From the IMG/VR virus record IMGVR_UViG_3300015615_000196, positions 32,001 through 96,000 of that record: DNA of 64,000 nucleotides; one strand, written 5' to 3'. The position numbers were made by a program, and so were the translations under genes. Shown one piece after another: positions 21,473 through 49,318 of the stretch (position 1 is its first letter; the number at the start of each line of letters is the position of its first letter). The notes beneath the pieces are model-generated. The model was not told the DNA's origin. It did not search any database and was given only the letters and a program-made list of their open reading frames with translations. This DNA comes from a virus (lineage: Duplodnaviria > Caudoviricetes).

Positions 21473-21817
21473 ATGGAGAAGATTTCTAAAGTCATCAGAT
21501 CACACGCGAATGGATCAATGTTCGAGTACGTGTTCTTTTGTCCGGGATGTGGTTGTGCACACGGGATTCGTACTACAAGTTGGCCGATGCCAACCGGATT
21601 AACAGAAGAGTACATTGAACTCTTCCAGAACAAATGGACTTTTAATGGTGATGTTGAGAAGCCTACTATACACCCTTCCATTCATGTATGGCATAAAGAT
21701 AAGAAAGGCAATAAAACTACAACTTGCCATTCGTTCGTTACGGAAGGTAAAATCCAATACCTCAATGATTGTATCCACGATTTAAAGGGACAGACAATCG
21801 ACTTGCCGGATTTTTGA
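21473..21817 (+). CDS. Zn-binding DUF6527-like protein
   Basis: FCPGCGCAH, PTIHPSI and CHSFVTEGKIQYLNDCIH. Confidence 0.6.
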   Translation: MEKISKVIRSHANGSMFEYVFFCPGCGCAHGIRTTSWPMPTGLTEEYIELFQNKWTFNGDVEKPTIHPSIHVWHKDKKGNKTTTCHSFVTEGKIQYLNDCIHDLKGQTIDLPDF

Positions 21818-21893
21818 GCACAAGGTGGGATTCGAACCCACGACATATGCCTGTTTTGCAGACAGGAGCCTTGAACCACTTGGCGACATGTGC
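21817..21893 (-). tRNA. tRNA-Cys(GCA)
   Basis: Cloverleaf, CCUGU-CUGCAAA-ACAGG. Confidence 0.9.
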
Positions 21894-21898
21894 GTGTG

Positions 21899-21980
21899 TA
21901 CCCCCGACAGGATTCGAACCTGTACGCCTTTCGGCACTACGTTCTAAGCGTAGCATGACTACCATTTCCAACACGGGGGC
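21899..21980 (-). tRNA. tRNA-Leu(TAG)
   Basis: Type II cloverleaf, loop CUUAGAA. Confidence 0.92.
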
Positions 21981-22516
21981 ATTTTAATCTCTTTCTAATA
22001 AGTATTTATGGGTATGCAGGGAGTAAACGAAATAACCAACATTTTCAAGGACGACCAAGAATACATTCCGGTCATTGCTGATCACGGAACGGTTGATGAT
22101 GCCATTTTCGGTGCTGCACTTCGTAAGGGTCATCTACCCAAATCCAATGTTACTACCGAATCTTTCAACATTGTCAAGAAGAATATCTACAAGATACACA
22201 AGCATGACGTGCCAAAGTTACTCAAGCTGCTCGAAGGTCTCAACAAAAGGCATCAAAATCAATTTCAGCCTCACATTGACGACATTTCTTACCACTTCAA
22301 CTCAATCAAAAAGAAGAACTAATCCTTATCTACATCGTTGAGTACGTACTTCACAAGAAGCACAACTGCGATTGTACTGAAAGGAATAAACAGTATGATC
22401 AAATCGATCAAGAAAAGAACTGGATTAATGAATCCATGATTCTTCAACTTGTAGTAAGTTGTCAACGGGAGGATTATTCTCCACCAGTTGAATTGCTTGA
22501 TCTTATCCATCATATG

Positions 22517-22598
22517 TACCCTTGGAGGGACTCGAACCCCCACGCCTCACGGCACTGGCTTCTTAGACCAGCGTGGCTACCAATTACACCACAAGGGC
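22517..22598 (-). tRNA. tRNA-Leu(AAG)
   Basis: Type II cloverleaf, CUGGU-CUAAGAA-GCCAG. Confidence 0.88.
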
Positions 22599-22627
22599 AT
22601 GTACATTTAAATACTGAGAAGTATTTG

Positions 22628-22698
22628 AGCCTTGACTGAGAATTGAACTCAGATTCTTTGTTTACGAAACAAAAGTTTTGCCGTTAAACTATCAAGGC
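22628..22698 (-). tRNA. tRNA-Thr(CGT)
   Basis: Loop UUCGUAA. Confidence 0.85.
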
Positions 22699-22705
22699 AA
22701 TTTTT

Positions 22706-22780
22706 TGGAGCCTCCAATGAGAATCGAACTCATGTTTCTCCCTTACCAAGGGAATGTTCTACCATTGCAACTATGGAGGC
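22706..22780 (-). tRNA. tRNA-Thr(GGT)
   Basis: Loop UUGGUAA; encoded CCA. Confidence 0.92.
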
Positions 22781-22786
22781 TTATAC

Positions 22787-22872
22787 AAAGTATTGTTCTG
22801 ACATTGAACTACGCCCTTACGTCATGATCGTAATTTGAGGATCGGTGGGACTCCAACCCACAACTATACTTC
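22787..22872 (-). ncRNA. Circularly permuted tRNA-like (Y RNA/YrlA-like) RNA 2
   Basis: T-arm GUGGG-UUGGAGU-CCCAC lies 5' of D-arm GUUC-AAUGUCA-GAAC; closed by AAGUAU/AUACUU. Confidence 0.6.
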
Positions 22873-22874
22873 TG

Positions 22875-22947
22875 AGACCGTAACGGGACTCAAACCCGTA
22901 GCTTTTCGTTTTAGGGACGACCACTCTATCAGTTGAGTTATACGGCC
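22875..22947 (-). tRNA. Amber suppressor tRNA(CUA)
   Basis: GGCCGUA/UACGGUC acceptor, U73; GUCGU-CCCUAAA-ACGAA; C33 instead of U33. Confidence 0.75.
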
Positions 22948-22956
22948 AAATATTAG

Positions 22957-23161
22957 AACAACAAGCACTCTGACATTGAGTTACATCCGTGCAGTGGCCA
23001 CTGTACATGTCAAACTTTGGATTCTTCCCTGATGACTTGACGTTGTAAGGGGAATTCTCATATTGCTACAAGAATTACAACATCTTTATAACGCCTTTGC
23101 TCTGGTATCGAACTTTCAGCTTGGTGGATGATGGGAATCCAACCCACAACTTCTTGTTGTT
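22957..23161 (-). ncRNA. Circularly permuted tRNA-like (Y RNA/YrlA-like) RNA 1
   Basis: AACAACAAG/CUUGUUGUU closing stem; T-arm GUGGG-UUGGAUU-CCCAU; CAUCC/GGAUG acceptor-like stem with ~140-nt insert; D-arm ACUC-AAUGUCA-GAGU. Confidence 0.6.
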
Positions 23162-23164
23162 TTG

Positions 23165-23237
23165 TGCGGAAGGTGAGAATCGAACTCACATTACTGGTTT
23201 TTCAAACCAGCACCTTGACCACGTTGGTAACAACCGC
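23165..23237 (-). tRNA. tRNA-Phe(GAA)
   Basis: Loop UUGAAAA. Confidence 0.85.
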
Positions 23238-23243
23238 ATATCG

Positions 23244-23315
23244 TGGAGATAATGGGAATCGAACCCACTTGTGATGTCGTCTGACACCAAACTCGTCCAT
23301 TGAGTAACTATCCCC
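23244..23315 (-). tRNA. tRNA-like RNA with Ala acceptor identity and non-canonical anticodon arm
   Basis: GGGGAUA/UAUCUCC (G3:U70), A73, normal T-arm; 7-bp stem capped by AGAC. Confidence 0.55.
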
Positions 23316-23818
23316 TACTAAATAATTTCTTCAAAAATTTCCATTTGGTATCGACACCCGTTGTCGGATATGTCTCTACATCAAAAACCTCTTTGTAACC
23401 TGACCAGCAATCGTCTGGCATTTTTGTCCAGACACAGAACATTCCAATTGCCGGAGTGTCTTTTCCGAGTTTCAACAATCGCCACGTTCCACCATATATT
23501 TTGCGATACCATTTCTTATCCAAGAAATTGCTACCCCAATACATGTTCTCTTGTTTCCGTAGCAGGTCTAACGATTCTGTTACCATTTGTCGTAGTCGGT
23601 TAAGTTGATTTTTTTACCGTCTGCTCTTTCTACTTCTACAACAGTTCCAAGTCCTGTTGGTGTAAACATGAAGGTGTACCCACCACCGATTGTAGCAGGA
23701 GGAAGTTTCTTCAACTTCTTATTCCATGCTTCGAGTTTTTTGATTTCATCTTCATCCAGTTCAAACTTGTAACTGGTTAAGATTTTTCCTGTATTTGCTT
23801 TCATACAAATAATTTATG

Positions 23819-23907
23819 CTCTTCCTATAGGATTCGAACCTATGCGGGGTGATTGCCACCCACCTGATTAACAGTCAGGACTTTTCGGCCACTAAAGCAA
23901 AGGAAGA
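23819..23907 (-). tRNA. tRNA-Asn(GTT) with long variable arm
   Basis: Loop CUGUUAA; GGGUG-gcaau-CACCC extra arm. Confidence 0.8.
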
Positions 23908-24112
23908 ATTTATTCATCAAATCCGGTTTCGTAAAAACCAGTCGTAATGAAGTCTGTATTATTCAATCCGATAAATCTGAATTTCTCCACAAGTTCGGGA
24001 TTGATCTTAACAACGTTTCCGTTGTCGTCAAGAAACTGGATGTCCTTCAAGTCAACCTTGTTGATCTCTCGTCTACGGGCATCCAGTTCTAAAATTTCGC
24101 TTATTTTTACTT

Positions 24113-24478
24113 TCATACTTCTGAAACTACTGCAAAGTAGATTTCTTTTGGCATTTCTCCAAATATGAATGCAGTTACATCACACAACCACATATTGAAA
24201 TCATAATCGATGCTCTTGTACGATTTGAGGTTGTACACTGCACCACCAACTTCTTCCATATCCGGCACACCGTTGCAAACCCATGTGAGTTTGTCGGCCC
24301 CGCCAAAATCTTCATCAGCAAATCTCAACTTAATTTCTCCTTGTCCTTGAGAAAGTATGTCAAGAAAACTATCAGCACCAAGAACCATTTGGAGTGCATC
24401 TTTACCACCTTCCCATTCAGGAAGATCAATATACCAGTTCCCCGATGTCTCTTTGTAAAACTTGCATGTCCTTTCCAT
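24113..24478 (-). CDS. Hypothetical protein (DUF6717-like)
   Basis: WYIDLPEW...LQMVLGAD...WLCDVT..FGEMPK.IY. Confidence 0.55.
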   Translation of the reverse strand: MERTCKFYKETSGNWYIDLPEWEGGKDALQMVLGADSFLDILSQGQGEIKLRFADEDFGGADKLTWVCNGVPDMEEVGGAVYNLKSYKSIDYDFNMWLCDVTAFIFGEMPKEIYFAVVSEV

Positions 24479-24795
24479 AGTGCTTCTTTATTTTGTTCAG
24501 AAGAGCAAGGTCTTCTGCGTTGTAATCATCATCTTTTTTCTTCTTGTTCATTTCTTCGATTGATTCGTAGAAACGAATTCGGTGTCTCCACACGTACTTT
24601 GCACCAACTGCTTTCTTGAATGTTCTTAAATCCAGATCATCGTGTAACCAGTAAAGTGCGTAATCTTGTCCTGCGTAACCTTCAATGAAATCTTGTCCTT
24701 CAATTAATTCTGATTTTAGTATTGCCTTGCGAATGTATTTCTTGTAGTGTGTAAGTCCCTTAATGTAAATCGTTCTCATTGTTTTGTTTCATATG

Positions 24796-24883
24796 CAGAG
24801 AGTGAGGGATTCGAACCCCCGTTACCCGCAAGGGGTAATCCAGTTTTCAAGACTGGTGCAATCATCCACTCTGCCAACTCTCT
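24796..24883 (-). tRNA. tRNA-Ser(TGA)
   Basis: Type II, loop CUUGAAA. Confidence 0.92.
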
Positions 24884-24902
24884 ATTGTAGTAATACATAC
24901 TC

Positions 24903-25406
24903 TCATATTAGTGAAAGTATTGATTCTGTCGCGTTTTTCAAACTGATTTCAACATACGGTACTTTGAACCATTCCAGACAACGAAGCACTTCTTCGTCTA
25001 CTTTGATCGCGTCTTCAAGTTTCTGCGATCTCCCGTGTTCTTTGTATTCAGTCTCACGTTTCAAGAAGAAGTTCAAGTTCTGGTATCTCTTGAATTCGTG
25101 AAAGACGTTTGCATGGAAGTGTTTGTTGTCGTCACCTTTTCCACTGTACACGATTGAATTGAACAGTGGTGCATCGGTTACGGCAATGTCAATCGTATCT
25201 TTCAGACGGAAGAATTTCTGGTGCTGATTCGCGAAAATCATTTGCTGATTTTCCATCATTTTGAATGACTGGTTCCACGTAAGTTCTTTTGCGTACTCGT
25301 CAACATATTCAACTTTGAGTTGCTTCATGTTTAGTTCCGTGAAAACCCTCATTGCAACCGTTGTCTTACCGACTCCGGGGCCACCAAAAAGATTGATTAC
25401 CTTCAT
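24903..25406 (-). CDS. P-loop kinase (NadR/AAA_28-like)
   Basis: MKVINLFGGPGVGKTT, EYAKE and TDAPL; true start lies after the tRNA. Confidence 0.75.
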   Translation of the reverse strand: MKVINLFGGPGVGKTTVAMRVFTELNMKQLKVEYVDEYAKELTWNQSFKMMENQQMIFANQHQKFFRLKDTIDIAVTDAPLFNSIVYSGKGDDNKHFHANVFHEFKRYQNLNFFLKRETEYKEHGRSQKLEDAIKVDEEVLRCLEWFKVPYVEISLKNATESILSLI

Positions 25407-25447
25407 AAGATTTGCTTTCCACAAATATATGAAATCTCTTTTGAATT

Positions 25448-25540
25448 TGGAAGAGGGTGTGGGACTCGAACCCACAAATCGGAATGGTTACCGACTTGCT
25501 CGTTTTCAAGACGAGTTCTTCATCCAGCCAGATACCCTCT
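25448..25540 (-). tRNA. tRNA-Ser(TGA), atypical D-arm
   Basis: Loop CUUGAAA; long variable arm; CCA. Confidence 0.75.
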
Positions 25541-25546
25541 ATGGTT

Positions 25547-25636
25547 TGGCAGAGAGTACAGGACTCGAACCTGTAAGACGTTTTACCGTCACGCCTGTTT
25601 TCGAGACAGGTGCATTGCCAATTATGCTAACTCTCT
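25547..25636 (-). tRNA. tRNA-Ser(CGA)
   Basis: Loop CUCGAAA; CCA. Confidence 0.9.
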
Positions 25637-25644
25637 GTGTATTG

Positions 25645-25733
25645 AGGAAAAGATGGGAGTCGAACCCACATTGGCGGTTCGTTGCCAGTGACGGCCCGGT
25701 TTCCTCCATATTAACCAGTTATAAGACCTTCCC
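25645..25733 (-). tRNA. Atypical tRNA-like RNA, anticodon unresolved
   Basis: Acceptor GGGAAGG/CUUUUCC and T-arm present; no canonical anticodon arm. Confidence 0.45.
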
Positions 25734-25870
25734 AAGTTAAATGTGTTGTTGTAAGTAGTAAGGGGTCGAACCTTTTTATGCCGTCCTCTTCTTTCCGTTT
25801 TCACTGTTCGAACAGTTACTAACGTGTCTGCGCAGACCAACACCGAAGTTATAAGCCCCGGCCACATTTG

Positions 25871-25943
25871 AGCGAGTGAAGGGACTCGAACCCTCAACTC
25901 CTGATTGGAAGTCAGGTGTGTTAGCCATTAGCACCACACTCGC
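25871..25943 (-). tRNA. tRNA-Gly(TCC)
   Basis: Loop CUUCCAA. Confidence 0.92.
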
Positions 25944-26098
25944 AGATGTCAAAACTTATTGTTTGGTATTTTGACTGGATGCCCATCATACCCTGCCGGA
26001 TATAAAAGTTTCCTGATTCTCTCAACATCACCATTGTCCACCAGTTCTAATCAACTGAAACAATCCTTGCATAGATGAATAGTCTACACAAGCCCGTG

Positions 26099-26170
26099 AG
26101 CAGATAGAGGGAATCGAACCCTCGTCCGTGCCTTGGCAAGGCACTATAATAACCACTATACGACATCTGC
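26099..26170 (-). tRNA. tRNA-Gly(GCC)
   Basis: Loop UUGCCAA. Confidence 0.9.
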
Positions 26171-26331
26171 GGATCAAAGCAGCATTGTTTTTTCAGGGTG
26201 ATCAAACCCTCTGGCTCCACGCATCACCACTGACCCACTTCACATTGATCAAATGTTCATCATGGTTCGCTGACACTTAAACGGTTTAAACATTCACTTA
26301 CGCCACGCGAGTAAGCTACACTACTTCAAAG

Positions 26332-26405
26332 AGCGAATAGTGGGGTTCGAACCCACGAGCCTTCTCCTTGGCAAGGAGACGTTCTACCAACTGAACTACA
26401 TTCGC
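26332..26405 (-). tRNA. tRNA-Gly(GCC)
   Basis: Loop UUGCCAA. Confidence 0.92.
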
Positions 26406-26468
26406 ATGGAGGCAGAGAGGCAGTGCTCCCACTGTGAGTCCCTTTTAAACTCTGCCATTTAATTATTG

Positions 26469-26542
26469 CTGGTTGGGTGAGAGTCGAACTCACATCTTAC
26501 AAGTTAACAGCTTGCCGTTTTACCAATTAGTACTACCAACCA
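26469..26542 (-). tRNA. tRNA-Asn(GTT)
   Basis: Loop CUGUUAA. Confidence 0.85.
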
Positions 26543-26547
26543 AAGTG

Positions 26548-26638
26548 CGGAGAGTGAGGGATTTGAACCCCCGGAACCCTTTTACGGGTTCGCCTGTTTA
26601 GCAAACAGGTGCAATCGGCCAGACTCTGCCAACTCTCC
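26548..26638 (-). tRNA. tRNA-Ser(GCT)
   Basis: Type II, loop UUGCUAA. Confidence 0.92.
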
Positions 26639-26642
26639 ATTA

Positions 26643-26727
26643 TGCATCGTATACGATTCGAACGTATGATTCTTTAAAGGAATGTCCGCTACACGCAGAC
26701 CGTCTTAAACCACTCAACCAACGATAC
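26643..26727 (-). tRNA. Leu-type tRNA body with aberrant anticodon loop (CGUGUAG)
   Basis: A73, long variable arm; GUCUG-CGUGUAG-CGGAC. Confidence 0.55.
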
Positions 26728-26733
26728 ATGTTG

Positions 26734-26806
26734 TAGGCAATGAAGGACTCGAACCTTCCTGACCACTTTATAAGAGTGGCATAATCCACCCATATATGAA
26801 TTGCCC
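26734..26806 (-). tRNA. tRNA-Ile(TAT)
   Basis: CCACU-CUUAUAA-AGUGG. Confidence 0.85.
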
Positions 26807-27159
26807 ATTTATTTTTTTCGACCACCATTCAAAATTTCGACTTTGAATTTTGTCTTGATCACATTCAAGATCAAAGTCTTTACAAACTCTGGTAGTTTGC
26901 TGTTGTTTTTTACTTCCTCTTCAAACTGATGAACCATCAATGATCCATAGTAGTTCTTGTTTCTTATGGTTTTCAAATCAACAAAGAATTTGTTGTATCT
27001 CTGCATGATTCGATTCACAGACCAAGTGATGTCCGGTCGATTCAATTCTTCCAGAACTTCTTCTAAGACAACGGCACATCTGTATTCTCTTGATGTGTAT
27101 GCATCTGCCCTAAATTTTTTCTCATACGGTTTGTGTTCCATAAATTTATTTAAGTTTTG

Positions 27160-27272
27160 CTGTACCAGTAGGATTCGAACCTACATAAGGAGATTAGGAC
27201 GTTACTGTCTTTCTCTCTTTTTCCTCTCCCCTGAGACAGAGGGGAAATGTCTGCCAGTTCCACCACAGTACA
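27160..27272 (-). tRNA. tRNA-Asp(GTC)-like with ~40-nt variable insert
   Basis: CCCCU-CUGUCUC-AGGGG, G73, purine-rich insert. Confidence 0.6.
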
Positions 27273-27279
27273 ATTTATG

Positions 27280-27352
27280 TCGTCAAGGTAGGATTCGAAC
27301 CTACAGTCTCCAAGGTATCAGCTTGGCGATTTAACCGTTAATCTACATGACG
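27280..27352 (-). tRNA. tRNA-Ile(GAT)
   Basis: Loop CUGAUAC. Confidence 0.88.
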
Positions 27353-27397
27353 ATAGCAAGTGCCATTTATTTTACCTGAATATGGCGAACAGTTTAG

Positions 27398-27469
27398 TAG
27401 GCAGTGAAGGAGTCGAGCCTTCGTGACGAACTTATCAGGTTCGCATAATAACCCTTATATGAACCGCCC
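27398..27469 (-). tRNA. tRNA-Ile(GAT)
   Basis: Loop CUGAUAA. Confidence 0.82.
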
Positions 27470-28055
27470 ATTTATTTTCTTGTTTTGAATTCTTCTACGT
27501 ACTCTTTTGCTTCCGGGTCTTTACCCCAACCTTCGTTTCCGCTTGAATGTGCACCAACAAAACCAAAATTTACTATAGTTGTAGTGAATCTAAAGGTGTA
27601 GTTACCAACCTGAAATTCTTTTGCCTCCGGGTCTTCCGTGATCGCAATCGTATCGACCTCTCTCACTTTGAATTTCTTTAGTGAGTCTTTGAAGGACTTG
27701 ATGTTTATGTTACAGACTTCCATTTTACATGTATTTTTTTACCCATTCTTCTCTGGATGCAATTGCTTCTATCATCATTTTCATCATGAGTGCAACATTC
27801 TCTTCACTGCTTGACGAATCATCGGCTTGTCTTGCCAACATTACTTGATGCTTCTTATTCAGAAGATAGTACTCCAAGATCGTTCCGTTTCCGTTGTTTT
27901 GTGCACCAACTAATTCGAAATTCAAAAGAGGTTTGTCTCTCTTTGTCAAGAGCCTCAACTTTCGTGTATTGATGAAACATAAATCCATTGTTTAGGTTTT
28001 ATTCGTCAAGTAATCGGTTATTCAACCCATCCCCCAATTCAGGATGCAACCAGAG

Positions 28056-28129
28056 TACTCTCGGAGGGACTCGAACCCCCAACCCTTTCGTTCGAAGCGA
28101 ATCGTTCTTCCAATTGAAACTACGAGAGC
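28056..28129 (-). tRNA. tRNA-Arg(TCG)
   Basis: Loop CUUCGAA. Confidence 0.88.
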
Positions 28130-28134
28130 ATATG

Positions 28135-28207
28135 TACCTTCGGAGGGAATCGAACCCCCATTTGATCGTTCGTAGCGACCCGTTCTGATCCGTTAAACTA
28201 CGAAGGC
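28135..28207 (-). tRNA. tRNA-Arg(ACG)
   Basis: Loop CUACGAA. Confidence 0.9.
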
Positions 28208-28218
28208 ATATTTTGTTG

Positions 28219-28291
28219 AACATCTGATGGGACTCGAACCCACAACTACCCGTTTAGGAAACAGGGGTTCTTCCAATTGAACTACAGATGC
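28219..28291 (-). tRNA. tRNA-Arg(CCT)
   Basis: Loop UUCCUAA. Confidence 0.9.
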
Positions 28292-28295
28292 TTAT

Positions 28296-28371
28296 TGGTA
28301 CACTCGGAGGGACTCGAACCCCCAACGACTTGTTTAGAAGACAAGCGTTCTTCCGGTTGAACTACGAGTGC
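28296..28371 (-). tRNA. tRNA-Arg(TCT)
   Basis: Loop CUUCUAA; CCA. Confidence 0.92.
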
Positions 28372-28668
28372 ATATTAATGTTCGAAACAATCATACACAT
28401 AGATAGGAGTTTGTTCTCCCATGTACGCACCTGAAATGTTGAACTCGAAAAATTCTATGGCTTCTTCGTGCGTCATACCATCCCTGCTCATTAGCTTTTG
28501 GATGATCTTACCCACAGAGTAACACAGTCTCATTTTTGATTCATCAACTCCGATGACTGCATCATCGTGACCGTCAACTGTCAAAAAATTTTCTTCTAAA
28601 TAATATTCCAAAATCTCTTTAAGCATTTTTTGAATATTTGAGTCAGTGTTAATTAGAATAATCCATTG

Positions 28669-28740
28669 TACCCCTGACAGGAATCGAACCTGTATCAAAT
28701 GATTAGAAGTCACTTATTCTGTCCATTGAACTACGGGGGC
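28669..28740 (-). tRNA. tRNA-Arg(TCT)
   Basis: Loop CUUCUAA. Confidence 0.92.
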
Positions 28741-29000
28741 AGATCGGTTTAAACTCCGAACGTGAATTGGAAGTTCTCCCCTAAATCTCTTTTCACCTTT
28801 TGTCTGATGATGTTCTTGAAGTTTCCTTCGAACAAGAATGCAGTCAAGCCAACGTGAGCAATCACTCTTTTTTGTTTTCCACTCTCTACGATTGTGGATA
28901 CTGAGTTGATGCCTTCGACTTCAACTAAATTCATTTCGTTCAACAGAACAAACTTGTCAGAGACTAAATCTTTGATTGTATACATGCATTTAATTTTTAG

Positions 29001-29083
29001 AGCCAACTGTGGGATTCGAACCCACGCGACCTCACGGTTCCTGATTACAAATCAGGTGCAATCGTCCTCTATGCGAAGTTGGC
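29001..29083 (-). tRNA. tRNA-Thr(TGT) with extra arm
   Basis: Loop UUUGUAA; ACC-gtga-GGU variable hairpin. Confidence 0.85.
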
Positions 29084-29260
29084 GTTTAATGTCAGTAAAT
29101 ATCTTGCCACAGATAAATACTGGCACTATTATGCGTAATTATACGGATTTTATCCCGCATACGCAAATAATACTTCTCAACATGTCAATGATCAAATGAG
29201 ACCAGTGAATAAGGCTGTGCTTCGGCAAGCACATTTACGGCAACCTTATTCAAGGTTTCG

Positions 29261-29332
29261 TGGGACTAACAGGAATCGAACCTGTGCTGCGAGATTTTCA
29301 GTCTCGTACTCTACCTACTGAGTTATAGTCCC
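29261..29332 (-). tRNA. tRNA-Phe(GAA)
   Basis: Loop CUGAAAA. Confidence 0.92.
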
Positions 29333-29337
29333 AAATG

Positions 29338-29466
29338 CACAAAGGGTGGGAGTCGAACCCACAAGATACTTGAACCTACTACGAGTCACCTTCGCTTGAA
29401 GGCTTCTCTTTTTTGTTCGTTCTCACCGTTTTGGAGACGGGTTACCTCACCAATGGTGGCCGATGT
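29338..29466 (-). tRNA. tRNA-Trp(CCA)-like with ~60-nt variable insert
   Basis: CCGU-CUCCAAA-ACGG; T-arm intact; acceptor has two mismatches. Confidence 0.55.
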
Positions 29467-29471
29467 GTGTG

Positions 29472-29542
29472 CACAGGTAGTAGGATTCGAACCCACATCA
29501 ACGGTTTTGGAGACCGCTATACTGCCGTTGTACGATACCTGT
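29472..29542 (-). tRNA. tRNA-Trp(CCA)
   Basis: Loop CUCCAAA. Confidence 0.9.
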
Positions 29543-29579
29543 AAAATAAAAAACCCGATCTTTTGGATCGGGTCTTTTT
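29543..29579 (-). terminator. Attenuator terminator of tRNA array 1
   Basis: ACCCGAUC-caaaa-GAUCGGGU followed by a U tract, ending at the 5' end of tRNA-Trp. Confidence 0.85.
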
Positions 29580-29601
29580 GATTCTTTATTCTATCTACGA
29601 C

Positions 29602-29730
29602 TTAGATAGTGTTTAAGTCAAACGACCCGATATGAGAATTACTGCCTCTAAAATTGAGCGTAGAAATTCCTCCTGTTATGGTTGAACCACACCAGTTAAT
29701 GCGGGAAATATTTGACATTAGACTTTTCAT
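29602..29730 (-). CDS. Leader peptide of tRNA array 1 (42 aa)
   Basis: MKSLMSNISRINWCGSTITGGISTLNFRGSNSHIGSFDLNTI; contains the antiterminator AUCGGGUC (29624-29631). Confidence 0.75.
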   Translation of the reverse strand: MKSLMSNISRINWCGSTITGGISTLNFRGSNSHIGSFDLNTI

Positions 29731-29748
29731 TTTTTCTTAAATCTTGAG

Positions 29749-29787
29749 CAAATGTACAGATAAATACGCAATGCGCAAGAAAAGGTT
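29749..29787 (-). promoter_or_regulatory. Tandem promoters: AACCTTTT-N11-CGTAT and Bacteroidota TAnnTTTG
   Basis: 29764-29787, and TACATTTG at 29749-29756. Confidence 0.7.
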
Positions 29788-34701: not shown

Positions 34702-36501
34702 TTAACGTCTGCCCAATTTGATTTCAACACGTCTGTTCTTTGCACGACCAGTCGCAGTTGAGTTATCAGCAATCGGCATGTCTTGTCCGAAACCGTTGGT
34801 AGTAATTTTTGCAGCGAAATCCGCATCTTTTGCAATCAGCCAGTTACGTACAGAGTTTGCACGAGCCTGTGACAGATTACGGTTGTCTTCTGCTCTACCA
34901 GTATTGTCAGTGTGACCGTTGATAGTCACCAAAAGGTTCTCAGCAACAACAAGGTCATTCAACAACTTGTTGAGTGTTTCAGTTGATCTCGGAGAGATCG
35001 TAGCACTACCAGTTTCGAACTCGATAGTTACGGCCTTCGAAGATACAAGGCTTGACATGGTCTCACCTTCTTTGAAAGTCTGCGTACTTGCTACTGTCAT
35101 TTCCGCATTATTCCTGTTGGCATTGTATACCGAAGTCAGGTATGAAAGATCAAGTATGTCCGTGAACGGAGTGTATGTAGGAAGTCTTTCAGGGTACGAT
35201 GCGGTTGCAATGTCACCGAAAGTAGTGTATACGGCTTCGTACTTGTTAACACCACCGTTCAAACCGAAGTAGACGGCATTGTCAGCTAAGTTGAATACAC
35301 GCGAACCACCAAGTTCTACAATGTTACCTTGTGCATCAGAATATTGGAAGCCTTTGAAGTACTTCTCCCATTCCTGTGCGGTAAGGTCACCGTAAAGTTC
35401 GGCAGCTACACCAGTTGCATAAGTAAGTGCTTGTGAGTGTGATTTTACTTGGTCACCACCTAAAGCAGCAGCCAAGATAAAGTTCTCAACTTTCTTACGA
35501 TTGCTTTCCAACCAGTCGCCACAAGCAAGCCATGCGTTCGGCATTTGTGCACCGTAGTCTTTAGTTGAAGCAAGTGAAACAAGTCCACCTTTCTGTTGAA
35601 CTGCGTTTACGTCACCGGGAGTCCATGTTACCACGCCATCAACGACAACAGTAGTATCACGACCAGTACGCTTTCCGTTGATTACAACAGGACGCTTTTC
35701 TTTTTGACCAGCGATGTACAACTTAGATGCAAGAAGATAGTCATCAACTGCAAGCCAGTTTACGGCATTAGGATCGTAAGTAGTAGGATCGTTGTTAACA
35801 GGGATTTGGTTGTCAGAGCAATATTTCATTGCAATGTTCCAGTCACCGTCAAGGATAACACCAGCTACAAGTGAACCACGAAGATTCTGAGGATCACGCT
35901 TTGCAGAAGGACGGCCAAGAAACTTGTCTTCACCGAATGATGCACCACCAGCATAGAATACTTTGATCTGATACTTTTCACCAAGAGTTTTCTTGATGGT
36001 TTCGTTCAAACCAGATGCGAGACCGGGAACACCGTCACCCATCCATGCGATCATGTGGTAACCCTTTCCAGAGTTTACATTGCCTTGCGCATAGTCCTGA
36101 ATGAAGGCATACAGTTGATTAGCTTGCTCAGTACAGTTGTTTTGGGTGATCAACTTGAGTTTCACACCGTGTTCTTCCATGAGCGAACCTTTGGTAGTTG
36201 TGATACCACCGTTTGCGTAAAGGATACCAGATTGAGCGTTCCAGCCCATGATACCTGCACGAATTACACCACCGCCCATGTCCGACACATCGTGTGAAGG
36301 AAGTGCACGGGTAGGTGCGTTTGCGGTCTTGTCATACTCCAACGGAGGAAGATCATTTACCGTTACGACCTGTGATGCTTTGACGGTCTTCGGGATCAAG
36401 CCACTGTCAACGACAACGTACTTCACTCCGTAACCGACTGCGAATACTGAAACTGCGAGTAGCAATTTACTGAACAACGTCAGATTTTTGAAAAACTTCA
36501 T
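34702..36501 (-). CDS. Substrate-binding protein fused to an OmpA C-terminal peptidoglycan-binding domain
   Basis: N-terminal TM anchor; C-terminal IEFETGSA, GHTDNTG, LSQARANSV and NRRVEI. Confidence 0.85.
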   Translation of the reverse strand: MKFFKNLTLFSKLLLAVSVFAVGYGVKYVVVDSGLIPKTVKASQVVTVNDLPPLEYDKTANAPTRALPSHDVSDMGGGVIRAGIMGWNAQSGILYANGGITTTKGSLMEEHGVKLKLITQNNCTEQANQLYAFIQDYAQGNVNSGKGYHMIAWMGDGVPGLASGLNETIKKTLGEKYQIKVFYAGGASFGEDKFLGRPSAKRDPQNLRGSLVAGVILDGDWNIAMKYCSDNQIPVNNDPTTYDPNAVNWLAVDDYLLASKLYIAGQKEKRPVVINGKRTGRDTTVVVDGVVTWTPGDVNAVQQKGGLVSLASTKDYGAQMPNAWLACGDWLESNRKKVENFILAAALGGDQVKSHSQALTYATGVAAELYGDLTAQEWEKYFKGFQYSDAQGNIVELGGSRVFNLADNAVYFGLNGGVNKYEAVYTTFGDIATASYPERLPTYTPFTDILDLSYLTSVYNANRNNAEMTVASTQTFKEGETMSSLVSSKAVTIEFETGSATISPRSTETLNKLLNDLVVAENLLVTINGHTDNTGRAEDNRNLSQARANSVRNWLIAKDADFAAKITTNGFGQDMPIADNSTATGRAKNRRVEIKLGRR

Positions 36502-36565
36502 ACTTTTTTAAGGTTTAAATTGAACAATTAATATATGTGCTTATACGTGTTAAGCCAATCAAAGT

Positions 36566-37555
36566 TTAGTTCTTCTTCAAAAGTTTTGCAAAAGAACTTT
36601 CTTTCGGAACAGATGACAAGATCGAAACCTCGCCAGTAGCACTCGGTACTTCAAGGAACAGACCACCATTGTCTTCGTATTCCTCAAGCAACTTCAAGCC
36701 ATCATCGTTCATCATCTGCTTTTCGATGTCGATGCCATCCATCACACCCTTCGATCTCTTTTCGAAATCGTCAATGAATGCGATCTTCTGCGTTACACTT
36801 TCTTCAAGAGCCAAAAGTGATTCTTGGAAGATACGAGCCTTCTCGTTGTCGGTGCTTGCAAACAGTTCTGCATCCGAAAGACCCTTGTACATTTCACGAA
36901 TGGTTTCGTACTCTGTACGCTTACGCTTGATTTCGTGCTCCAACTTGGTAATTGAGTAGCCCCAATTTTCGTCAAGTTTTTCAAGGAACGTAAGGTTCTT
37001 CTTCATACGATCATAGATCGGCTGATAAAGTTTCACAGACTCATTGTCGCTACTTGCCATGCTTGCAAACAAAGATGCTTGCTCAGTCTTGTTGACACTT
37101 TTTGCAGCTTTTGCTTTGCGCATGTTTTCATCAATGCCTTTTACCAAGTCAGTGATTTGACGTTCGAGTTTTACCTTCTTGCCTTCGATCTTAGTCTTGG
37201 TAACTTGAAGGTTGTGACGCTTCTCTTTCAGGTTTTCGACATACCGATCAAGGTACGACAAGAAATCCATCTTAATGAAGAAACTTGTGATCTTCCGGCA
37301 GATGTTTTTGTAGGTCATGGCAATGAAGTCCGGGTTTTGCAGTACATAGAGTACGACAAAGATCAACGGAATTGTTACCAATGCTGCTGCCCAAATACTT
37401 CCCACAAGAGAAGTAATGTTGTCGAAGAACGAGATCAGGGTTGAGGCAATCTTGTTGAAGAACAAGATACCAAGTCCTGCCAGTGCCACAGGTATACCGT
37501 AACGAACGATTTTTTCCTGCGGTGTGCCACCATTTGCTGAATTAAATCCTTGCAT
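36566..37555 (-). CDS. Membrane-anchored coiled-coil protein (PspA/IM30-like)
   Basis: Two TM helices, then a long coiled coil. Confidence 0.55.
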   Translation of the reverse strand: MQGFNSANGGTPQEKIVRYGIPVALAGLGILFFNKIASTLISFFDNITSLVGSIWAAALVTIPLIFVVLYVLQNPDFIAMTYKNICRKITSFFIKMDFLSYLDRYVENLKEKRHNLQVTKTKIEGKKVKLERQITDLVKGIDENMRKAKAAKSVNKTEQASLFASMASSDNESVKLYQPIYDRMKKNLTFLEKLDENWGYSITKLEHEIKRKRTEYETIREMYKGLSDAELFASTDNEKARIFQESLLALEESVTQKIAFIDDFEKRSKGVMDGIDIEKQMMNDDGLKLLEEYEDNGGLFLEVPSATGEVSILSSVPKESSFAKLLKKN

Positions 37556-37592
37556 AAATTTTTGTTTTAGAGTTATGTTGAATTGGGTACGA

Positions 37593-38246
37593 CTATGCTA
37601 TGTACAAGTTCATCTTTTCGATGTTGCCACGAATATCCGTGACGAAGTCTTCGGCAGCAGCTTCGAATGCTGCTTTCTTGCTTTGCAATGAAAGGGTTTG
37701 TTCATTGATCTCATTGTTGATTTTGAAAATCAACTCTGCGTTTTTGTCTTTCTTATCTCTCAATGCCTGAATTTGTTTTTCAATTTCACCATTTTCTGAG
37801 GTAAGAAGATCGGCCTTCTTTTTCTTGTCGCCAACTTGGGTAGTTAATACCCCATTGATCTCATTGGTAAACCCTGATACTTGAGAATTAATCAGGTCTA
37901 CATATTTCTGGCCAGTTTCAAGCAAACGTGCTTTGGTCAAGCCTTGTGCTTGAAGGATTGAGAACACAGTCGTGAACTTGATGTTCTCCGGGATTTGTTG
38001 TCCTGCAAGATTTTTCAGTGCATCGGTGAACTCCTGAAAATCAGGGCCAGCGAAATTACCTTTCTTGTAGACTTCGTTCAAAAATTCAGTGAACTCGTTT
38101 TTCTCGGTCTGAGTTACTGTTACTGCTCCGTTTACGAGATTGTTAACGTTGCTCGGAGTTGCTGCTTTGTGAGTCGGTTTCGCCAATGGCTTCTTTTCTT
38201 CTACTGGCATTTCTTCGCTCTTCACAAAAAGGTCTTTCAGGCCCAT
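37593..38246 (-). CDS. Coiled-coil hypothetical protein
   Basis: First gene of the ABC/OmpA operon, after TAAATTTG. Confidence 0.6.
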   Translation of the reverse strand: MGLKDLFVKSEEMPVEEKKPLAKPTHKAATPSNVNNLVNGAVTVTQTEKNEFTEFLNEVYKKGNFAGPDFQEFTDALKNLAGQQIPENIKFTTVFSILQAQGLTKARLLETGQKYVDLINSQVSGFTNEINGVLTTQVGDKKKKADLLTSENGEIEKQIQALRDKKDKNAELIFKINNEINEQTLSLQSKKAAFEAAAEDFVTDIRGNIEKMNLYIA

Positions 38247-38306
38247 AATTGTCGTGTTTTAGAGTTTTGACTTCGTTTTTGTTACACAAATTTAGTAAGA
38301 TAATTT

Positions 38307-39506
38307 TTATCTCCTACTTTTGATGAATATTTTTTTCACAGCCTGTTTAAAGGCTTCGTTCAATTCTTCATCGTCATCAATATCGTTATTTACGACCCAA
38401 TAGGCCAGCCCGACATTGATAATAAGCGTTAAGACATAGATTATGATGATCTGAGTTATGGTTGGCTCAATGTTAAGGTAGTCGAAATCGTGGAAGTCTT
38501 TACGCTTCCATTCGAACTTAACTTCATCGTCAATCATGTCAATGATCTGGTTTAAATCGAGTTTTTGTTCGTCCTCAATTCTATGCTTGATCTTCACCTT
38601 CACTTCGGTCTTTTCAGTCCATGAGAAAGTATGACCCCACATAATATTTTTGTCGTGGTCAATTCCAACACATACCACGATCTCATTCATGTTACCACCC
38701 TGCCAGTATCTTTCCTGAACAAGTCCTGCTTCTCTTGGTTGATCGGTGAAGACCAGAAGGTATACACGCACTTGTTTGCTTGCACCCATTCTTGAGTTGA
38801 GAACTTGCAGTCGTTGTGCAGCAGAATTATCGTTATAGCCCAACAACACTTCTTGGTGAAACTGTCTTACGACCGGAGGATAATCGAAAGGCTTGTATTG
38901 CTTGATCTCCATGCTATCCAATTCTTGGAAGTGGAAAATCGAATGGGAAGCCTTCGGACGATTCTCGTATGATTCAGATTCGGCAACTGGTTCAAGTGTT
39001 TCATCTTTATTGTCCCACTTGGTCGAATACATGTCACCATCAATTGAATGGTAGTGACGGTTCATGTCCACGAATTGCTTTCCTGTTCCGAATTGTGCAA
39101 CCAGTTCATTGTACCTTGTCTTGCTGATACCGTAGTCGCTCAATGTTGTGATTGCTTCCCAATGTTCGGGGTGATAATCAACATCGTAAGGGTGCATGTG
39201 ACCACAGACATATGTCGTACACGATCTGGTTTTTCCACTACCACTGCAACGTGTGCAGTATATTGGATGTCGGCACGATACTCGTTCATCCCATGCTTCA
39301 TAGAAGCGAACTTCCGTCACATATCCACCCAACCATTCTTCGTCAGCAGTAAGCGAGTGAACGCAGATTGCTTTGGCAATGAGTACCATGATCACAGTAG
39401 TCACTATCGGAATGATTATCTCCCACCAAACCACTTTCTTGTGGTAGAAACTCAGCAAAATGATTGCTGAAATGATTGGTATGAGGAATGCTAAGTAAAC
39501 GGCCAT
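38307..39506 (-). CDS. Membrane protein (possibly TPM-domain-like)
   Basis: Two N-terminal and one C-terminal TM helices; YWQGGNMNEIVVCVG. Confidence 0.55.
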   Translation of the reverse strand: MAVYLAFLIPIISAIILLSFYHKKVVWWEIIIPIVTTVIMVLIAKAICVHSLTADEEWLGGYVTEVRFYEAWDERVSCRHPIYCTRCSGSGKTRSCTTYVCGHMHPYDVDYHPEHWEAITTLSDYGISKTRYNELVAQFGTGKQFVDMNRHYHSIDGDMYSTKWDNKDETLEPVAESESYENRPKASHSIFHFQELDSMEIKQYKPFDYPPVVRQFHQEVLLGYNDNSAAQRLQVLNSRMGASKQVRVYLLVFTDQPREAGLVQERYWQGGNMNEIVVCVGIDHDKNIMWGHTFSWTEKTEVKVKIKHRIEDEQKLDLNQIIDMIDDEVKFEWKRKDFHDFDYLNIEPTITQIIIIYVLTLIINVGLAYWVVNNDIDDDEELNEAFKQAVKKIFIKSRR

Positions 39507-44235: not shown

Positions 44236-45741
44236 ATGAGCCAAATCAATGAAGCCTTTTCGGTCAGTAGAGGAAAAGACGAACGTGGAAACGTAATTGC
44301 ATTTATAGACCCTTCGAAACCAGAGAACGCAAAGAGTTTCGACTACAGACAGGTCTTCAAAGATCACGGGGCAAAGTGGAATCCAAACAGTAAATTCTGG
44401 TACTGGTATGTTGGTAAAACCGAAGACCAGTGGAGAAACGTTTTCAGCAAATTCATTGAACCAGCACTTAAAGCCGTACACGGTAAAGAAGGTGCAAGCG
44501 AAGATGACAGCAAAGCAGCAGTCATTGCATCATTGGATGCTCTCATTTCTCAAATTGAGACAACTCCTATCGCTTCAACTGATGTGAAACTTTCACCTCA
44601 GCAAGAAGAAACAATCAAGAACAAACTTTTACAATTCAAGCAACGACTTGTTAACATCGAAAACGATGAAGACTTCAAAGCAGCCGTTGCAGCAGTAATC
44701 AAATTCAAGAACGCACAGGGTTACAAATTTTCATTCGGTAACTCTATTTTAATTCTTATCCAGAATCCTCGTGCAACCATCGTCAACAGCAAGACCAATT
44801 GGGAGAAGTACTACAATCGTACTGTGAAACCAGATGCGCAGCCGTTGATGGTCTATGCTCCTAATAGCGTAGGTGGTGGTATGTCTGCCGACAAGAAAGA
44901 AGAAGCAGAGAAAAATTACCTTGCAAAGATCGGCAAGACCAAAGACAAAATGAGTCCACATGAAAAGATCGTTCTTCAAAGTCTTCAAAGAGGTTACGGT
45001 TATGCAAAGTCATTTACATTCGTAAGCGTATATGACGTTGCTGACACGCAACAGATCGAAGGCAAAGAAGACTTCATCAAAGGCACTGAGGACAGAAATA
45101 AATTAAAGTGGCACGAAGAAAACAACATCACCGAAGAAGTAAGACCTCTTTATACTGCATTGCTTAATATCGCAAAAGAGAAAGGCATTGACGTAAGCAT
45201 GGCCGACACTCTTGGTGGTGCAAGAGGTGTGAGCAGCAGTGGACGTATTCAAATTTTAAAGAACGAAGGTAATGACGTTGGTTTAACCAAGACCCTTGCC
45301 CATGAACTTGCTCACGAATTTCTCCACCAGACCTATCTTGGTACAAGAGATAAAGAACTCGGTAAGTTCTTCATCGGTAAAACAGAAGGTAAAGATGCCA
45401 TTGAACAGCAAGCGGAAATCGCTGCATGGATGATCATGGATGCCTTTGGATTCGATGTAAAAACTACTTCATTAAACTACGCAGTCATTTGGGGTGGTGA
45501 CAAAGAAAAGATGGTTAAAGTATTTGATACGGTTGCTGGTGTTGTAAACAAAATTATTGACGACATCAACTCACAGTTGAAAAAGAATGTATCGGAAAAT
45601 ACTGGCCAGCCAAGACTTGGTCAACACGTTTCACCGCAAGAAATCGCAAATTTCATTGGCGTTGGAAACGAGTATTCACAAGAAGCCAAGCGTGAATCGA
45701 TGCTTGAAAACTTCTATCGAAAGGTTAACATCATTCGATAA
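44236..45741 (+). CDS. ArdC-like protein (ssDNA-binding region plus HExxH metallopeptidase domain)
   Basis: FSFGNSILILIQNPRAT, VYDVADT and LAHELAHE...EQQAE motifs. Confidence 0.7.
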   Translation: MSQINEAFSVSRGKDERGNVIAFIDPSKPENAKSFDYRQVFKDHGAKWNPNSKFWYWYVGKTEDQWRNVFSKFIEPALKAVHGKEGASEDDSKAAVIASLDALISQIETTPIASTDVKLSPQQEETIKNKLLQFKQRLVNIENDEDFKAAVAAVIKFKNAQGYKFSFGNSILILIQNPRATIVNSKTNWEKYYNRTVKPDAQPLMVYAPNSVGGGMSADKKEEAEKNYLAKIGKTKDKMSPHEKIVLQSLQRGYGYAKSFTFVSVYDVADTQQIEGKEDFIKGTEDRNKLKWHEENNITEEVRPLYTALLNIAKEKGIDVSMADTLGGARGVSSSGRIQILKNEGNDVGLTKTLAHELAHEFLHQTYLGTRDKELGKFFIGKTEGKDAIEQQAEIAAWMIMDAFGFDVKTTSLNYAVIWGGDKEKMVKVFDTVAGVVNKIIDDINSQLKKNVSENTGQPRLGQHVSPQEIANFIGVGNEYSQEAKRESMLENFYRKVNIIR

Positions 45742-46065: not shown

Positions 46066-47571
46066 ATGGCTATTACGTCAATCTCTCCAAATAGTGGTGT
46101 TGGTGGCGATCCGTTCACAATTATCGGAACTGATTTTAATGCACTTTACGCAAACAATGCAACTGTTGAAGTTAAGGCACTCCTAAGTATAACCTACCAA
46201 TGGACTGCTGAGACTCGCACTTATGGTTACAACGTTTCAGGTTCACACACAAACACAACTATTTCTTGTGTCGCACCAAACTACAATGGTAGAGGCACAA
46301 TGTCATTTAGTGTATTCCAAAACAATAATATTGTTGGTACATTCGCATACTCTTATCCGAATTCTACAGTTACATCTTGTAGTTTAGATACGAATAGTGT
46401 CCTTACACCGGGAAGTAGTACAATTACAGTAAATGGCACTAATCTACAATATTTGACCCTTAATCTTATTTATTTTTTGGGGATGATGACTTTAGGGACT
46501 CCTACTGTTACTGGCATTACCTACAATGGAGATTATTCACAGTTATCATTCACATTACCATACGATCCATATGTAACACAATCACACGGAATTAGATTAA
46601 TGATCGGCACAGGCGGTGGATATGGTTACAATAGTACTGAAAATCTCTACAATCACGCAATTACTTATCCAAGCCCAACCATTCAAAGCATAGTACCAGC
46701 AGGTGGTACTACATATGGAGGTTGGTATGGAAACAATAGTTTCAATACTATCACCATATATGGACAAAATTTATGGGGAATGGGATATGCGAAGGTTGGT
46801 AGCGAGTCTTGTAACGTAGTTAGTATTTCACCAGATGGAACACAAATGGTGATTTTTAAACCAACTGGAAATCTTAATGGCAGTAGTAGTGGCTATGTAA
46901 GTATTGGAACTGCTTCAAGTAATATTTTGGTAACAGGCACTCAATGGTATCCTTGTATCTTAACACCATTCATTGATTCATTCTATCCTCAAAGTGGCCC
47001 TGCTGGAACTACAGTTGACATTTATGGCTACAACTTAGTCAGAAATAATCCTCAGTGGGTTGTTCCAAGTGTTACATTTAATGGCGTTCCGGCTGTTGTT
47101 GACACTAACTTTAATGGTGGTGGTCATATTAGAGTGACTGCACCACTTTCGTACACTGGTAGAATCGTTGTAACTAATAATGTTACAGGTTCACATACAA
47201 GTGCAATTGATTATACGTATCCACCAGTAGCAATTAACGTAAATTTTTCAACCAATATAATGGGTGGTGGTGGATCAATCACATCGATTCAGTATTCTAA
47301 AAACGGTGGAGCATGGACGACAATGGGAAGAGGGACAAACATCTATAATACTGACTACATGCAATACAGAGCAACGTTTACAAAGGCAAGTGGATACAAT
47401 TATATGGATGTTCAAATCACGGTTCCACCAGTTGGAAATTGCATGAATGATTCTTCATCAACATCCCCAATTACAAGAAGTACGTGGGGTAGTTTCAGAA
47501 GCCTTTCAAGTTACACTGTTTACTTTGGTGTAAACAGCTACGGGACAGGTGGCGGTGGAGGAATTCACTAA
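46066..47571 (+). CDS. IPT/TIG-repeat (Ig-like) protein, probably virion surface
   Basis: ITSISPNSG...FTIIG, PTIQSIVPAGG and IDSFYPQSGPAGTTVDIYG repeats; G/S/T/N-rich. Confidence 0.75.
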   Translation: MAITSISPNSGVGGDPFTIIGTDFNALYANNATVEVKALLSITYQWTAETRTYGYNVSGSHTNTTISCVAPNYNGRGTMSFSVFQNNNIVGTFAYSYPNSTVTSCSLDTNSVLTPGSSTITVNGTNLQYLTLNLIYFLGMMTLGTPTVTGITYNGDYSQLSFTLPYDPYVTQSHGIRLMIGTGGGYGYNSTENLYNHAITYPSPTIQSIVPAGGTTYGGWYGNNSFNTITIYGQNLWGMGYAKVGSESCNVVSISPDGTQMVIFKPTGNLNGSSSGYVSIGTASSNILVTGTQWYPCILTPFIDSFYPQSGPAGTTVDIYGYNLVRNNPQWVVPSVTFNGVPAVVDTNFNGGGHIRVTAPLSYTGRIVVTNNVTGSHTSAIDYTYPPVAINVNFSTNIMGGGGSITSIQYSKNGGAWTTMGRGTNIYNTDYMQYRATFTKASGYNYMDVQITVPPVGNCMNDSSSTSPITRSTWGSFRSLSSYTVYFGVNSYGTGGGGGIH

Positions 47572-48129: not shown

Positions 48130-48858
48130 TCCCAAAACGGGAATTAAATTATATGTTCTTCTCTCGGTATGGTTTCCTTTATTGGAACAAATCCAGCTTG
48201 AATTTCGTCATCGATGTCAGGGAGAAAACTTAATTTAGTTTTCTTCTTCCTGTTACCTTCGTTTTCCCAAAACCAAAAACACATTGCTGCGCTATCCCAC
48301 ATCGCTACGATCATAGGTTGATCTTTTGAATAGACTGTATAATTCTGCATTATATAGCCCGAATAATAATACCCATCTTTCAGGGTTGCTTTCTGCAACA
48401 CGTTAATCATACGTCACAAATTTAAAAATGAAATAAAAAGTCCACCCTGAGCGACCTGTTCAATGGGAAGGCGGGTGGACATGTTAAGGATAAATACTGA
48501 CCCTGAGAACGATTCACAACTAAAGTAGAATTAATGCCAGATGTTTCACCAGCACGTTTGGTCAGGAATATTACCAGTATCTATACCTTATTCTCTCGAT
48601 TCTTTCCTAAATGATAACCGTCACACCAGAGGCATTTATAGTTACTGAAATAAACGCCCCTCTTCTCAGACATTTTCTTTGCTGATTTTTGAGCCGTCTC
48701 TTTCGTGTTGTAACTCACCTTCGGTTCACCATTATCTCTCAAATGGCTGCGCTTATCAATCAGACCAAGTAAGTGACCTTTGAAAAGATTTCTCATTAAT
48801 CTCTTCATCGGTAGCTGGTCTTTAAACGCCAGTCTTATGTTTCTTAACTTGATCATAG

Positions 48859-48940
48859 TGGGAGCAGTAGGACTCGAACCTACGAAGCCCGGAGGCGACA
48901 GATTTACAGTCTGTTGTAATTGCCGCTATACGATACTCCC
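48859..48940 (-). tRNA. tRNA-Tyr(GTA)
   Basis: Type II, loop CUGUAAA. Confidence 0.9.
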
Positions 48941-48946
48941 AACGGT

Positions 48947-49318
48947 TTATCGCAGTTCAACCTCAGCACCAGCATTCAACAACTGGTTCTTGATGTTCTC
49001 TGCATTCTCTTTCGAGACACCTTCCGAAATTACTTTTGGCGCACCGTCCACAAGGTCTTTCGATTCCTTCAAGCCGATGTTAAGAAGGTCTTTCACCAAC
49101 TTAACGATTTGAAGTTTGTTTGCACCTGCTGATTTAAGAACGATGTCAAAATTTGACTTTTCTGCTGGTACATAGTCCCCATCACCCGGTGGATGATAAA
49201 TTGGTGCTGCGACTGATTGCTCAATCCCATACGTCTCCTTTAAATACTCTGCAAGTTCTTTTACCTCTTTGACAGAGAGATTCACAAGTTGATCACCGAG
49301 TGCTTTTACATCTTTCAT
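48947..49318 (-). CDS. rplL: Ribosomal protein bL12 (L7/L12)
   Basis: QLVNLSVKEVKELAEYLKETYGIE; FDIVLKSAGANKL...GLKESKDLVDGAP...AGAEVEL. Confidence 0.95.
   Translation of the reverse strand: MKDVKALGDQLVNLSVKEVKELAEYLKETYGIEQSVAAPIYHPPGDGDYVPAEKSNFDIVLKSAGANKLQIVKLVKDLLNIGLKESKDLVDGAPKVISEGVSKENAENIKNQLLNAGAEVELR

Follow-up and report, generated by a model that had tools for sequence, protein, structure and literature searches.

Why would a phage place a short open reading frame (ORF) and a transcription terminator directly in front of a long array of tRNA genes? We examined this question at a locus within a 64,000-nucleotide window, which covers bases 32,001 to 96,000 of a complete 362,603-bp viral record (IMGVR_UViG_3300015615_000196). 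The genome is that of a Bacteroidota-type jumbo phage with 40.5% GC, 61 tRNA genes, a Gp23-type capsid protein, a T4-like terminase, and two sigma-70-like factors. No close cultured relative was found, as the best capsid and terminase matches were only 25 to 42% identical and included Flavobacterium phage immuto. In contrast, IMG/VR holds at least 146 relatives, of which the best 80 are 70 to 91% identical in the capsid protein. TAnnTTTG promoters (consensus in PMC9723704) point to a Bacteroidota host by inference. The standard genetic code is used, and a genome-wide alternative code was rejected because TAG accounted for 16 of 247 stops. The initial annotation had proposed from the letters alone that the leader ORF is an attenuator matched to the whole downstream array of about 30 tRNAs.

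First, we confirmed the layout of the locus, all of which lies on the minus strand. A Bacteroidota sigmaA-type promoter (29749 to 29778) consists of TTG (29778-29776), a 19-nt spacer, and the -7 box TACATTTG (29756-29749). It overlaps the motif CGTATTTA (29768-29761), which is found at all four tRNA leaders of this genome and is a candidate phage-specific promoter. The 42-codon leader ORF (29730-29602) starts 18 nt after the -7 box; it is not on record as a called gene and showed no Pfam match. Downstream of the ORF, an intrinsic terminator (29543 to 29574) consists of a GC stem with a 5-nt loop at 29574-29552 and a U-tract to 29543, ending one base before tRNA-Trp. The promoter layout is the same as that of array 2, and the terminator stem is the same ACCCGATC/GATCGGGT. 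The array (array 1, 21816 to 29542) contains 28 tRNAs detected by ARAGORN, for Trp, Phe, Thr, Arg, Ile, Ser, Asn, Gly, Leu(CUN), and Cys (20 anticodons), together with a CUA tRNA (22947-22875), three odd tRNA-like elements, and small ORFs. The tRNA-like elements (29338-29469, 27150-27265, and 23241-23315, minus strand) have proper acceptor and T arms but abnormal anticodon arms or long inserts, and could be decoys, intron-bearing tRNAs, or other RNAs.

The observation made in the initial annotation held, although four details were corrected. The codon inventory was right: the ORF uses all 4 Thr, all 4 Gly, all 3 Ile, 5 of 6 Ser, and both Asn codons and lacks Ala, Val, Glu, Gln, Pro, and Tyr. 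However, no canonical tRNA-Asp lies in array 1, because both tRNA-Asp(GTC) genes are in array 3, so the match is 37 of 41 codons after the start rather than the 38 of 42 residues claimed. The Leu-type element at 27150-27265 with loop CTGTCTC may be what had been counted as tRNA-Asp. In addition, TCG, GGG, and ACT lie in or after the antiterminator strand, where stalling cannot antiterminate, and AGA, which had been listed among codons matching rare isoacceptors, is the commonest Arg codon of the phage (42%). Finally, the array has 28 ARAGORN tRNAs, the CUA tRNA, and the three tRNA-like elements.

We next tested whether the codon match exceeded chance, which had been set beforehand as a condition for the attenuator reading. 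Against a phage background of 0.516, the binomial probability of 37 of 41 cognate codons was 1.5e-7. Empirically, 74 of 72,958 41-codon windows in real genes reached 37 (1e-3), and the ORF ranked second of 1,659 small ORFs in the genome. Overall codon diversity was also raised (30 distinct codons versus 25.5 expected, p=0.006). The 5' strand of the predicted antiterminator (29617 to 29631, codons 34-38) pairs with a 3' strand (29567 to 29582) that overlaps the 5' arm of the terminator, as had been claimed. The pairing comprises 8+5 bp plus further pairs, encloses an inner hairpin that holds the leader stop codon (29591 to 29609), and forms a domain of -22.4 kcal/mol (z -4.45) versus -17.5 kcal/mol for the terminator. 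Synonymous shuffling of the leader gave p=0.003.

A scan for a -7 box plus terminator returned four sites genome-wide, three of which were tRNA leaders, and the fourth leader was identified by direct reading. Besides the present leader, a 21-codon Lys/Tyr leader (51007-50942) lies in a sister unit (50881 to 51060, minus strand) with its own promoter and a terminator with the same stem. It precedes array 2 (48858 to 50876, minus strand), which contains 5 tRNA-Lys and 3 tRNA-Tyr genes; RNA ligase (PF09414) and ribosomal protein bL12 genes lie inside this operon (48947-50016, minus strand) and would thus be under the Lys/Tyr attenuator. A 39-codon Leu(UUR)/Glu/Asp/Ala/Val/Met leader (genome 98646-98527) lies beyond the window and precedes array 3, whose distal end (Val, Met) is at window 62576 to 63913 on the minus strand. 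The fourth leader, PQPQHQPQ (genome 101214-101297), precedes Pro/His/Gln tRNAs. Each leader was enriched only for its own array (p 1.5e-7, 2.7e-4, 4.5e-4, and 1.3e-3; off-diagonal p>=0.6). The array 3 leader uses only TTA/TTG and its array has only UAA/CAA tRNAs, while the sensing region of the present leader uses CTA and CTC and its array has UAG and AAG. Nearly all tRNA genes of the phage are split among four such units. Outside them, a separate cluster (genome 297132-299292, minus strand) with a second CUA tRNA, tRNA-Leu(UAA), and several tRNA-like elements, and a lone tRNA-Gln (genome 191735, plus strand), showed no matching leader.

To examine the switch geometry, we masked a ribosome footprint codon by codon on model RNA cut before the 3' arm of the terminator. 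The antiterminator held (0.96) with the ribosome at codons 2-30 and was lost from codon 31-32, and in the other three leaders it was lost at the end of the cognate run. This result was stable across four footprint sizes. Codons 2-30 (29641 to 29727) thus form the predicted sensing region, in which all codons but Lys2 and Met5 are cognate to array 1 and all ten amino acids occur; however, the part after the switch is also cognate-rich in this leader (9/11). In the model, at equilibrium on full-length RNA, the terminator wins at nearly every ribosome position, so the switch must be kinetic. With the ribosome at the stop codon, the model lets the antiterminator re-form unless pairing across the ribosome is barred. 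With no ribosome, the modeled nascent RNA folds as antiterminator, so translation failure also predicts read-through. A possible anti-antiterminator segment (29702 to 29719, codons 4-10) pairs with codons 34-39 in the full-length fold but loses to the antiterminator in nascent RNA, according to the folding model only, and no polymerase pause site was identified.

In addition to this genome, we investigated related viral contigs, in which about 80 distinct units occur. A search for the terminator pattern alone, blind to leaders and tRNAs, gave 119 viral loci, of which about 45 had a leader upstream and tRNAs downstream. A promoter-pattern search and a second terminator pattern gave few extra units. 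Across 42 dereplicated units, 98% of array amino acids occurred in the own leader versus 66% when permuted (p<=5e-5; still 2.5e-4 at 9 clusters). Whole tRNA regions from seven more records showed different partitions of the tRNA set. For example, one record (G007) has Ser/His/Trp/Ile/Met/Asn/Arg, Cys/Val/Leu, Phe/Glu/Asp/Ala, and Pro/Lys/Gly/Gln/Tyr/Thr operons, and in two others (G005 and G008) the present array is split in two (Thr/Arg/Ile and Asn/Phe/Ser/Gly/Leu/Cys). The true leader-array pairing ranked first in all eight genomes tested, including this one (2.5e-7), and the pooled cognate fraction was 78% before the switch point and 34% after, although a few switch points were misplaced by upstream ATGs. 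In six genomes picked only by capsid similarity, five have arrays, and the true pairing ranked first in 5/5 (1.3e-4). Every array in these five has a leader, those missed by the script being found on inspection; the sixth has three scattered tRNAs, and the two examined have none. Because the compared phages are related, the permutation p-values overstate independence; the within-genome test is least affected.

Leader content followed the tRNAs when operons were repartitioned. Trp and Leu CUN/UUR codons move with their tRNAs between operons; Trp sits in the Asp/Glu/Leu operon and its leader in most relatives, but here it has moved to array 1 and to the present leader. Over 80 leaders and 32 terminator arms, the leader strand changed in step with the arm (0.82 of a perfect duplex versus a permutation maximum of 0.69), indicating that the antiterminator and terminator co-vary. 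Related operons include a UCA-anticodon tRNA and a UUA-anticodon tRNA (loci L484, in G007; L073; and L596, in huge phage LR756511). BLAST of the leader and array against cultured phages hit only tRNA bodies. However, the cultured Cellulophaga phages phi4:1 and phi17:2 have three units each (Pro/Glu/Gln/His/Leu/Arg; Ala/Lys/Ile/Gly/Met/Asp/Thr/Val/Arg; and Tyr/Ser/Asn/Trp/Phe/Cys), mostly unannotated, with matching leaders, and modeling of phi4:1 showed the same switch geometry. Phage phi38:1 has the same three units, at record positions of about 35,200-38,800 of KC821614, and phi10:1 has one before Tyr/Phe. A published infection time-course transcriptome of phi38:1 (PMC5335546) mentions neither leaders nor attenuation of these genes. 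No clear leader was found before the tRNAs of Flavobacterium phage immuto_2-6A or at the main cluster of LR756511, although the Ser/Leu/Tyr cluster of the latter has a GTG-start Ser/Leu/Tyr-rich frame before a terminator.

Altogether, these results strongly support a ribosome-mediated transcription attenuator that makes synthesis of the phage tRNAs depend on how fast the host ribosome decodes the codons those tRNAs read, and we hold this reading with high confidence on sequence and computational evidence alone, with no sequencing run listed for this locus (which is no evidence either way). In this view, host RNA polymerase would start at the sigmaA promoter and a ribosome would translate the leader. 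If the ribosome passes codon 30-31 in time, it would cover the antiterminator strand, the terminator would fold, and transcription would stop one base before tRNA-Trp. If it is held anywhere in codons 2-30, because a Trp, Phe, Thr, Arg, Ile, Ser, Asn, Gly, Leu(CUN), or Cys tRNA is cleaved, uncharged, or overdrawn, the antiterminator would form first and the 7.7-kb array would be transcribed. New tRNAs would then restore decoding and close the loop. The layout, the codon match, the mutually exclusive helices, and their co-variation across phages rest on the sequence and computation, whereas translation of the leader, kinetic switching, the response of read-through to cognate aminoacyl-tRNA supply in vivo, negative feedback, and tRNA destruction by host anticodon nucleases as the main trigger are inferred.

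The interpretation given in the initial annotation was partly supported. Its codon-sensing component survived the conditions that could have refuted it: the match is above chance, array 3 has a matching leader, and no second terminator and no more promoter-like sites than chance lie inside array 1. TAnnTTTG occurs twice (at 25429 and 22220; 3.6 expected by chance) and GTATTTA twice (at 29120 and 22614; about 1 expected). GTATTTA is enriched just upstream of genes, so a late internal promoter at 29120 or 22614 is not excluded. The site at 29120, a 12-nt copy of the promoter motif of the leader, overlaps a long stable hairpin between tRNA-Phe and tRNA-Thr (29085-29175, minus strand; z -3.8). In contrast, the claim that depletion of any one isoacceptor induces the array was overstated. 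Only 17 of 20 anticodons have a cognate codon in the sensing region (p=0.054 given the peptide), which is merely suggestive. Arg CCU, Arg UCG, and Ser CGA have none; AGG and CGA/CGG are absent, and TCG lies in or beyond the antiterminator strand. Theory predicts that diluted regulatory codons lower sensitivity until decoding is very slow (PMC1183508). A race model with the rates of that paper gave, at the middle setting, 2% basal read-through, 9% for one codon slowed 5-fold, 25% at 10-fold, 60% at 30-fold, and 49% for four codons slowed 5-fold, although these are E. coli rates and illustrative only. The leader would thus sum delays and act as an OR gate only for severe, near-complete loss of a tRNA (10- to 30-fold slowing or more), which by inference fits nuclease destruction better than mild starvation.

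We considered three alternatives. The first, which differs only in the trigger and remains a tentative and less likely possibility, is that the same attenuator responds to amino acid starvation or to general overload of the host tRNA pool late in infection (uncharged or scarce tRNA) rather than to tRNA cleavage by defense systems. A leader cannot tell uncharged from destroyed tRNA, as established for attenuators (PMC1183508), and the bacterial look-alikes sense Trp for trpE. However, making more tRNA would not relieve a lack of amino acids, and sampling of one codon per isoacceptor responds mainly to near-complete loss. In addition, array 2 co-transcribes an RNA ligase, and the genome has a CCA-adding-type nucleotidyltransferase domain (CCA-adding/poly(A) polymerase head domain in a 992-aa open frame; genome 230396-230779, plus strand) but no match to two synthetase families. 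Phage tRNAs are also proposed to counter host tRNases (PMC10264068). The second alternative, which is unlikely, is that the leader gauges translation speed or ribosome-polymerase coupling in general, so that the array opens on any slowdown or when the leader is not translated and codon identity matters little. The ten amino acids of this leader cover 52% of phage codons, and untranslated RNA folds as antiterminator, but leader content tracks operon content across many different partitions, down to two-amino-acid leaders, which needs codon-specific selection. The third, a terminator that is constitutive or overridden by a phage antiterminator or by internal late promoters, with the ORF a small protein or a chance frame, is very improbable, because, despite the internal promoter-like sites, the two sigma factors, and one small ORF in the genome that scores as high by chance, it does not explain the diagonal match, the compensatory antiterminator changes, or peptides whose sequence varies freely while composition follows the array.

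Next, we compared the unit with related systems. Multivalent leader-peptide attenuators of amino acid operons, such as E. coli thrL (Thr/Ile) and the ilvGMEDA leader (Leu/Ile/Val), and also trpL, hisL, and pheL, share with the phage unit a short leader ORF with regulatory codons, an antiterminator strand in its 3' part, and an overlapping intrinsic terminator, with stalling predicting read-through. The best reading of the phage unit is trp/ilv-type ribosome-mediated attenuation applied to tRNA genes. The theory of such attenuators is given in PMC1183508. The phage unit differs in that it is phage encoded, precedes tRNA genes rather than biosynthetic or synthetase genes, and samples ten amino acids mostly with one to four scattered codons instead of runs. 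Furthermore, its product is the sensed molecule (direct feedback), and its untranslated RNA is predicted to read through rather than to superattenuate. Among 120 of at least 120 bacterial loci with the same terminator, no leader preceded tRNA genes and four preceded trpE. Bacteroidota trpE leaders (Pedobacter/Sphingobacteriales loci L287, L294, L328, and L340), in which a Trp-codon leader precedes anthranilate synthase, share the promoter type, the ACCCGAY/RTCGGGT terminator stem, and a similar stop-to-stem spacing, and leader-peptide attenuation has been inferred for F. psychrophilum biosynthetic operons (PMC9723704). These leaders sense a single amino acid and have a protein-coding target; by inference, they are a plausible source of the module. 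T-box riboswitches also choose between terminator and antiterminator by tRNA charging state, but they bind tRNA directly and need no translation. No Rfam T-box match was found here at gathering or at E<=1, and none was found in Bacteroidetes in PMC2494555, so T-box membership was rejected. Membership in Rfam Thr_leader (RF00506) was likewise rejected, with 23.8 bits versus a gathering threshold of 55 (E 0.67) over the terminator only. Phage tRNAs that counter tRNA-cleaving defenses (PARIS, retron/PrrC, and Schlafen; PMC11464382, PMC11555353, and PMC10264068) share the likely purpose of replacing depleted host tRNA, but those reports, as far as we could see, do not describe demand-gated transcription of the tRNA genes. 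We found no description of leader-peptide attenuation of tRNA genes in the literature, in searches that reached few subscription papers.

Why phages carry large tRNA sets has been an open question for 50 years (PMC10264068). A sensor wired to each set would mean that the genes are made on demand when decoding of those codons fails, which favors replacement of depleted tRNA over plain codon-bias compensation and would make each leader a ready reporter of which tRNAs a host destroys. It would also extend attenuation to tRNA genes as a direct feedback loop, in a design that is accessible in cultured Cellulophaga baltica phages. A broader hypothesis, which we regard as no more than evenly balanced, is that Bacteroidota phages carry a modular surveillance system for the host tRNA pool, in which each tRNA operon is transcribed only when its own codons stall, so that cleavage of a tRNA by a host defense nuclease would switch on the operon holding its replacement. 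The present leader would be an extreme case, one sensor for ten amino acids and 17 of 20 anticodons, formed as operons fuse and swap tRNAs. In the same hypothesis, the CUA suppressor tRNA of array 1 may pass the alarm on to an amber-interrupted gene. A PTH2-like peptidyl-tRNA hydrolase gene (20026-19655, minus strand; PF01981, E 1.5e-6 when read through) has an in-frame TAG at codon 9, and many relatives also end this array with a CUA tRNA, making it a possible suppressor-gated gene. Searches with the PTH2-like protein and with the neighboring vWA protein found no close viral relatives. Elsewhere in the window, two adjacent 501-aa ORFs of equal length on the plus strand (44236-45741 and 46066-47571), the first with a weak metalloprotease match, possibly represent a tandem duplication.
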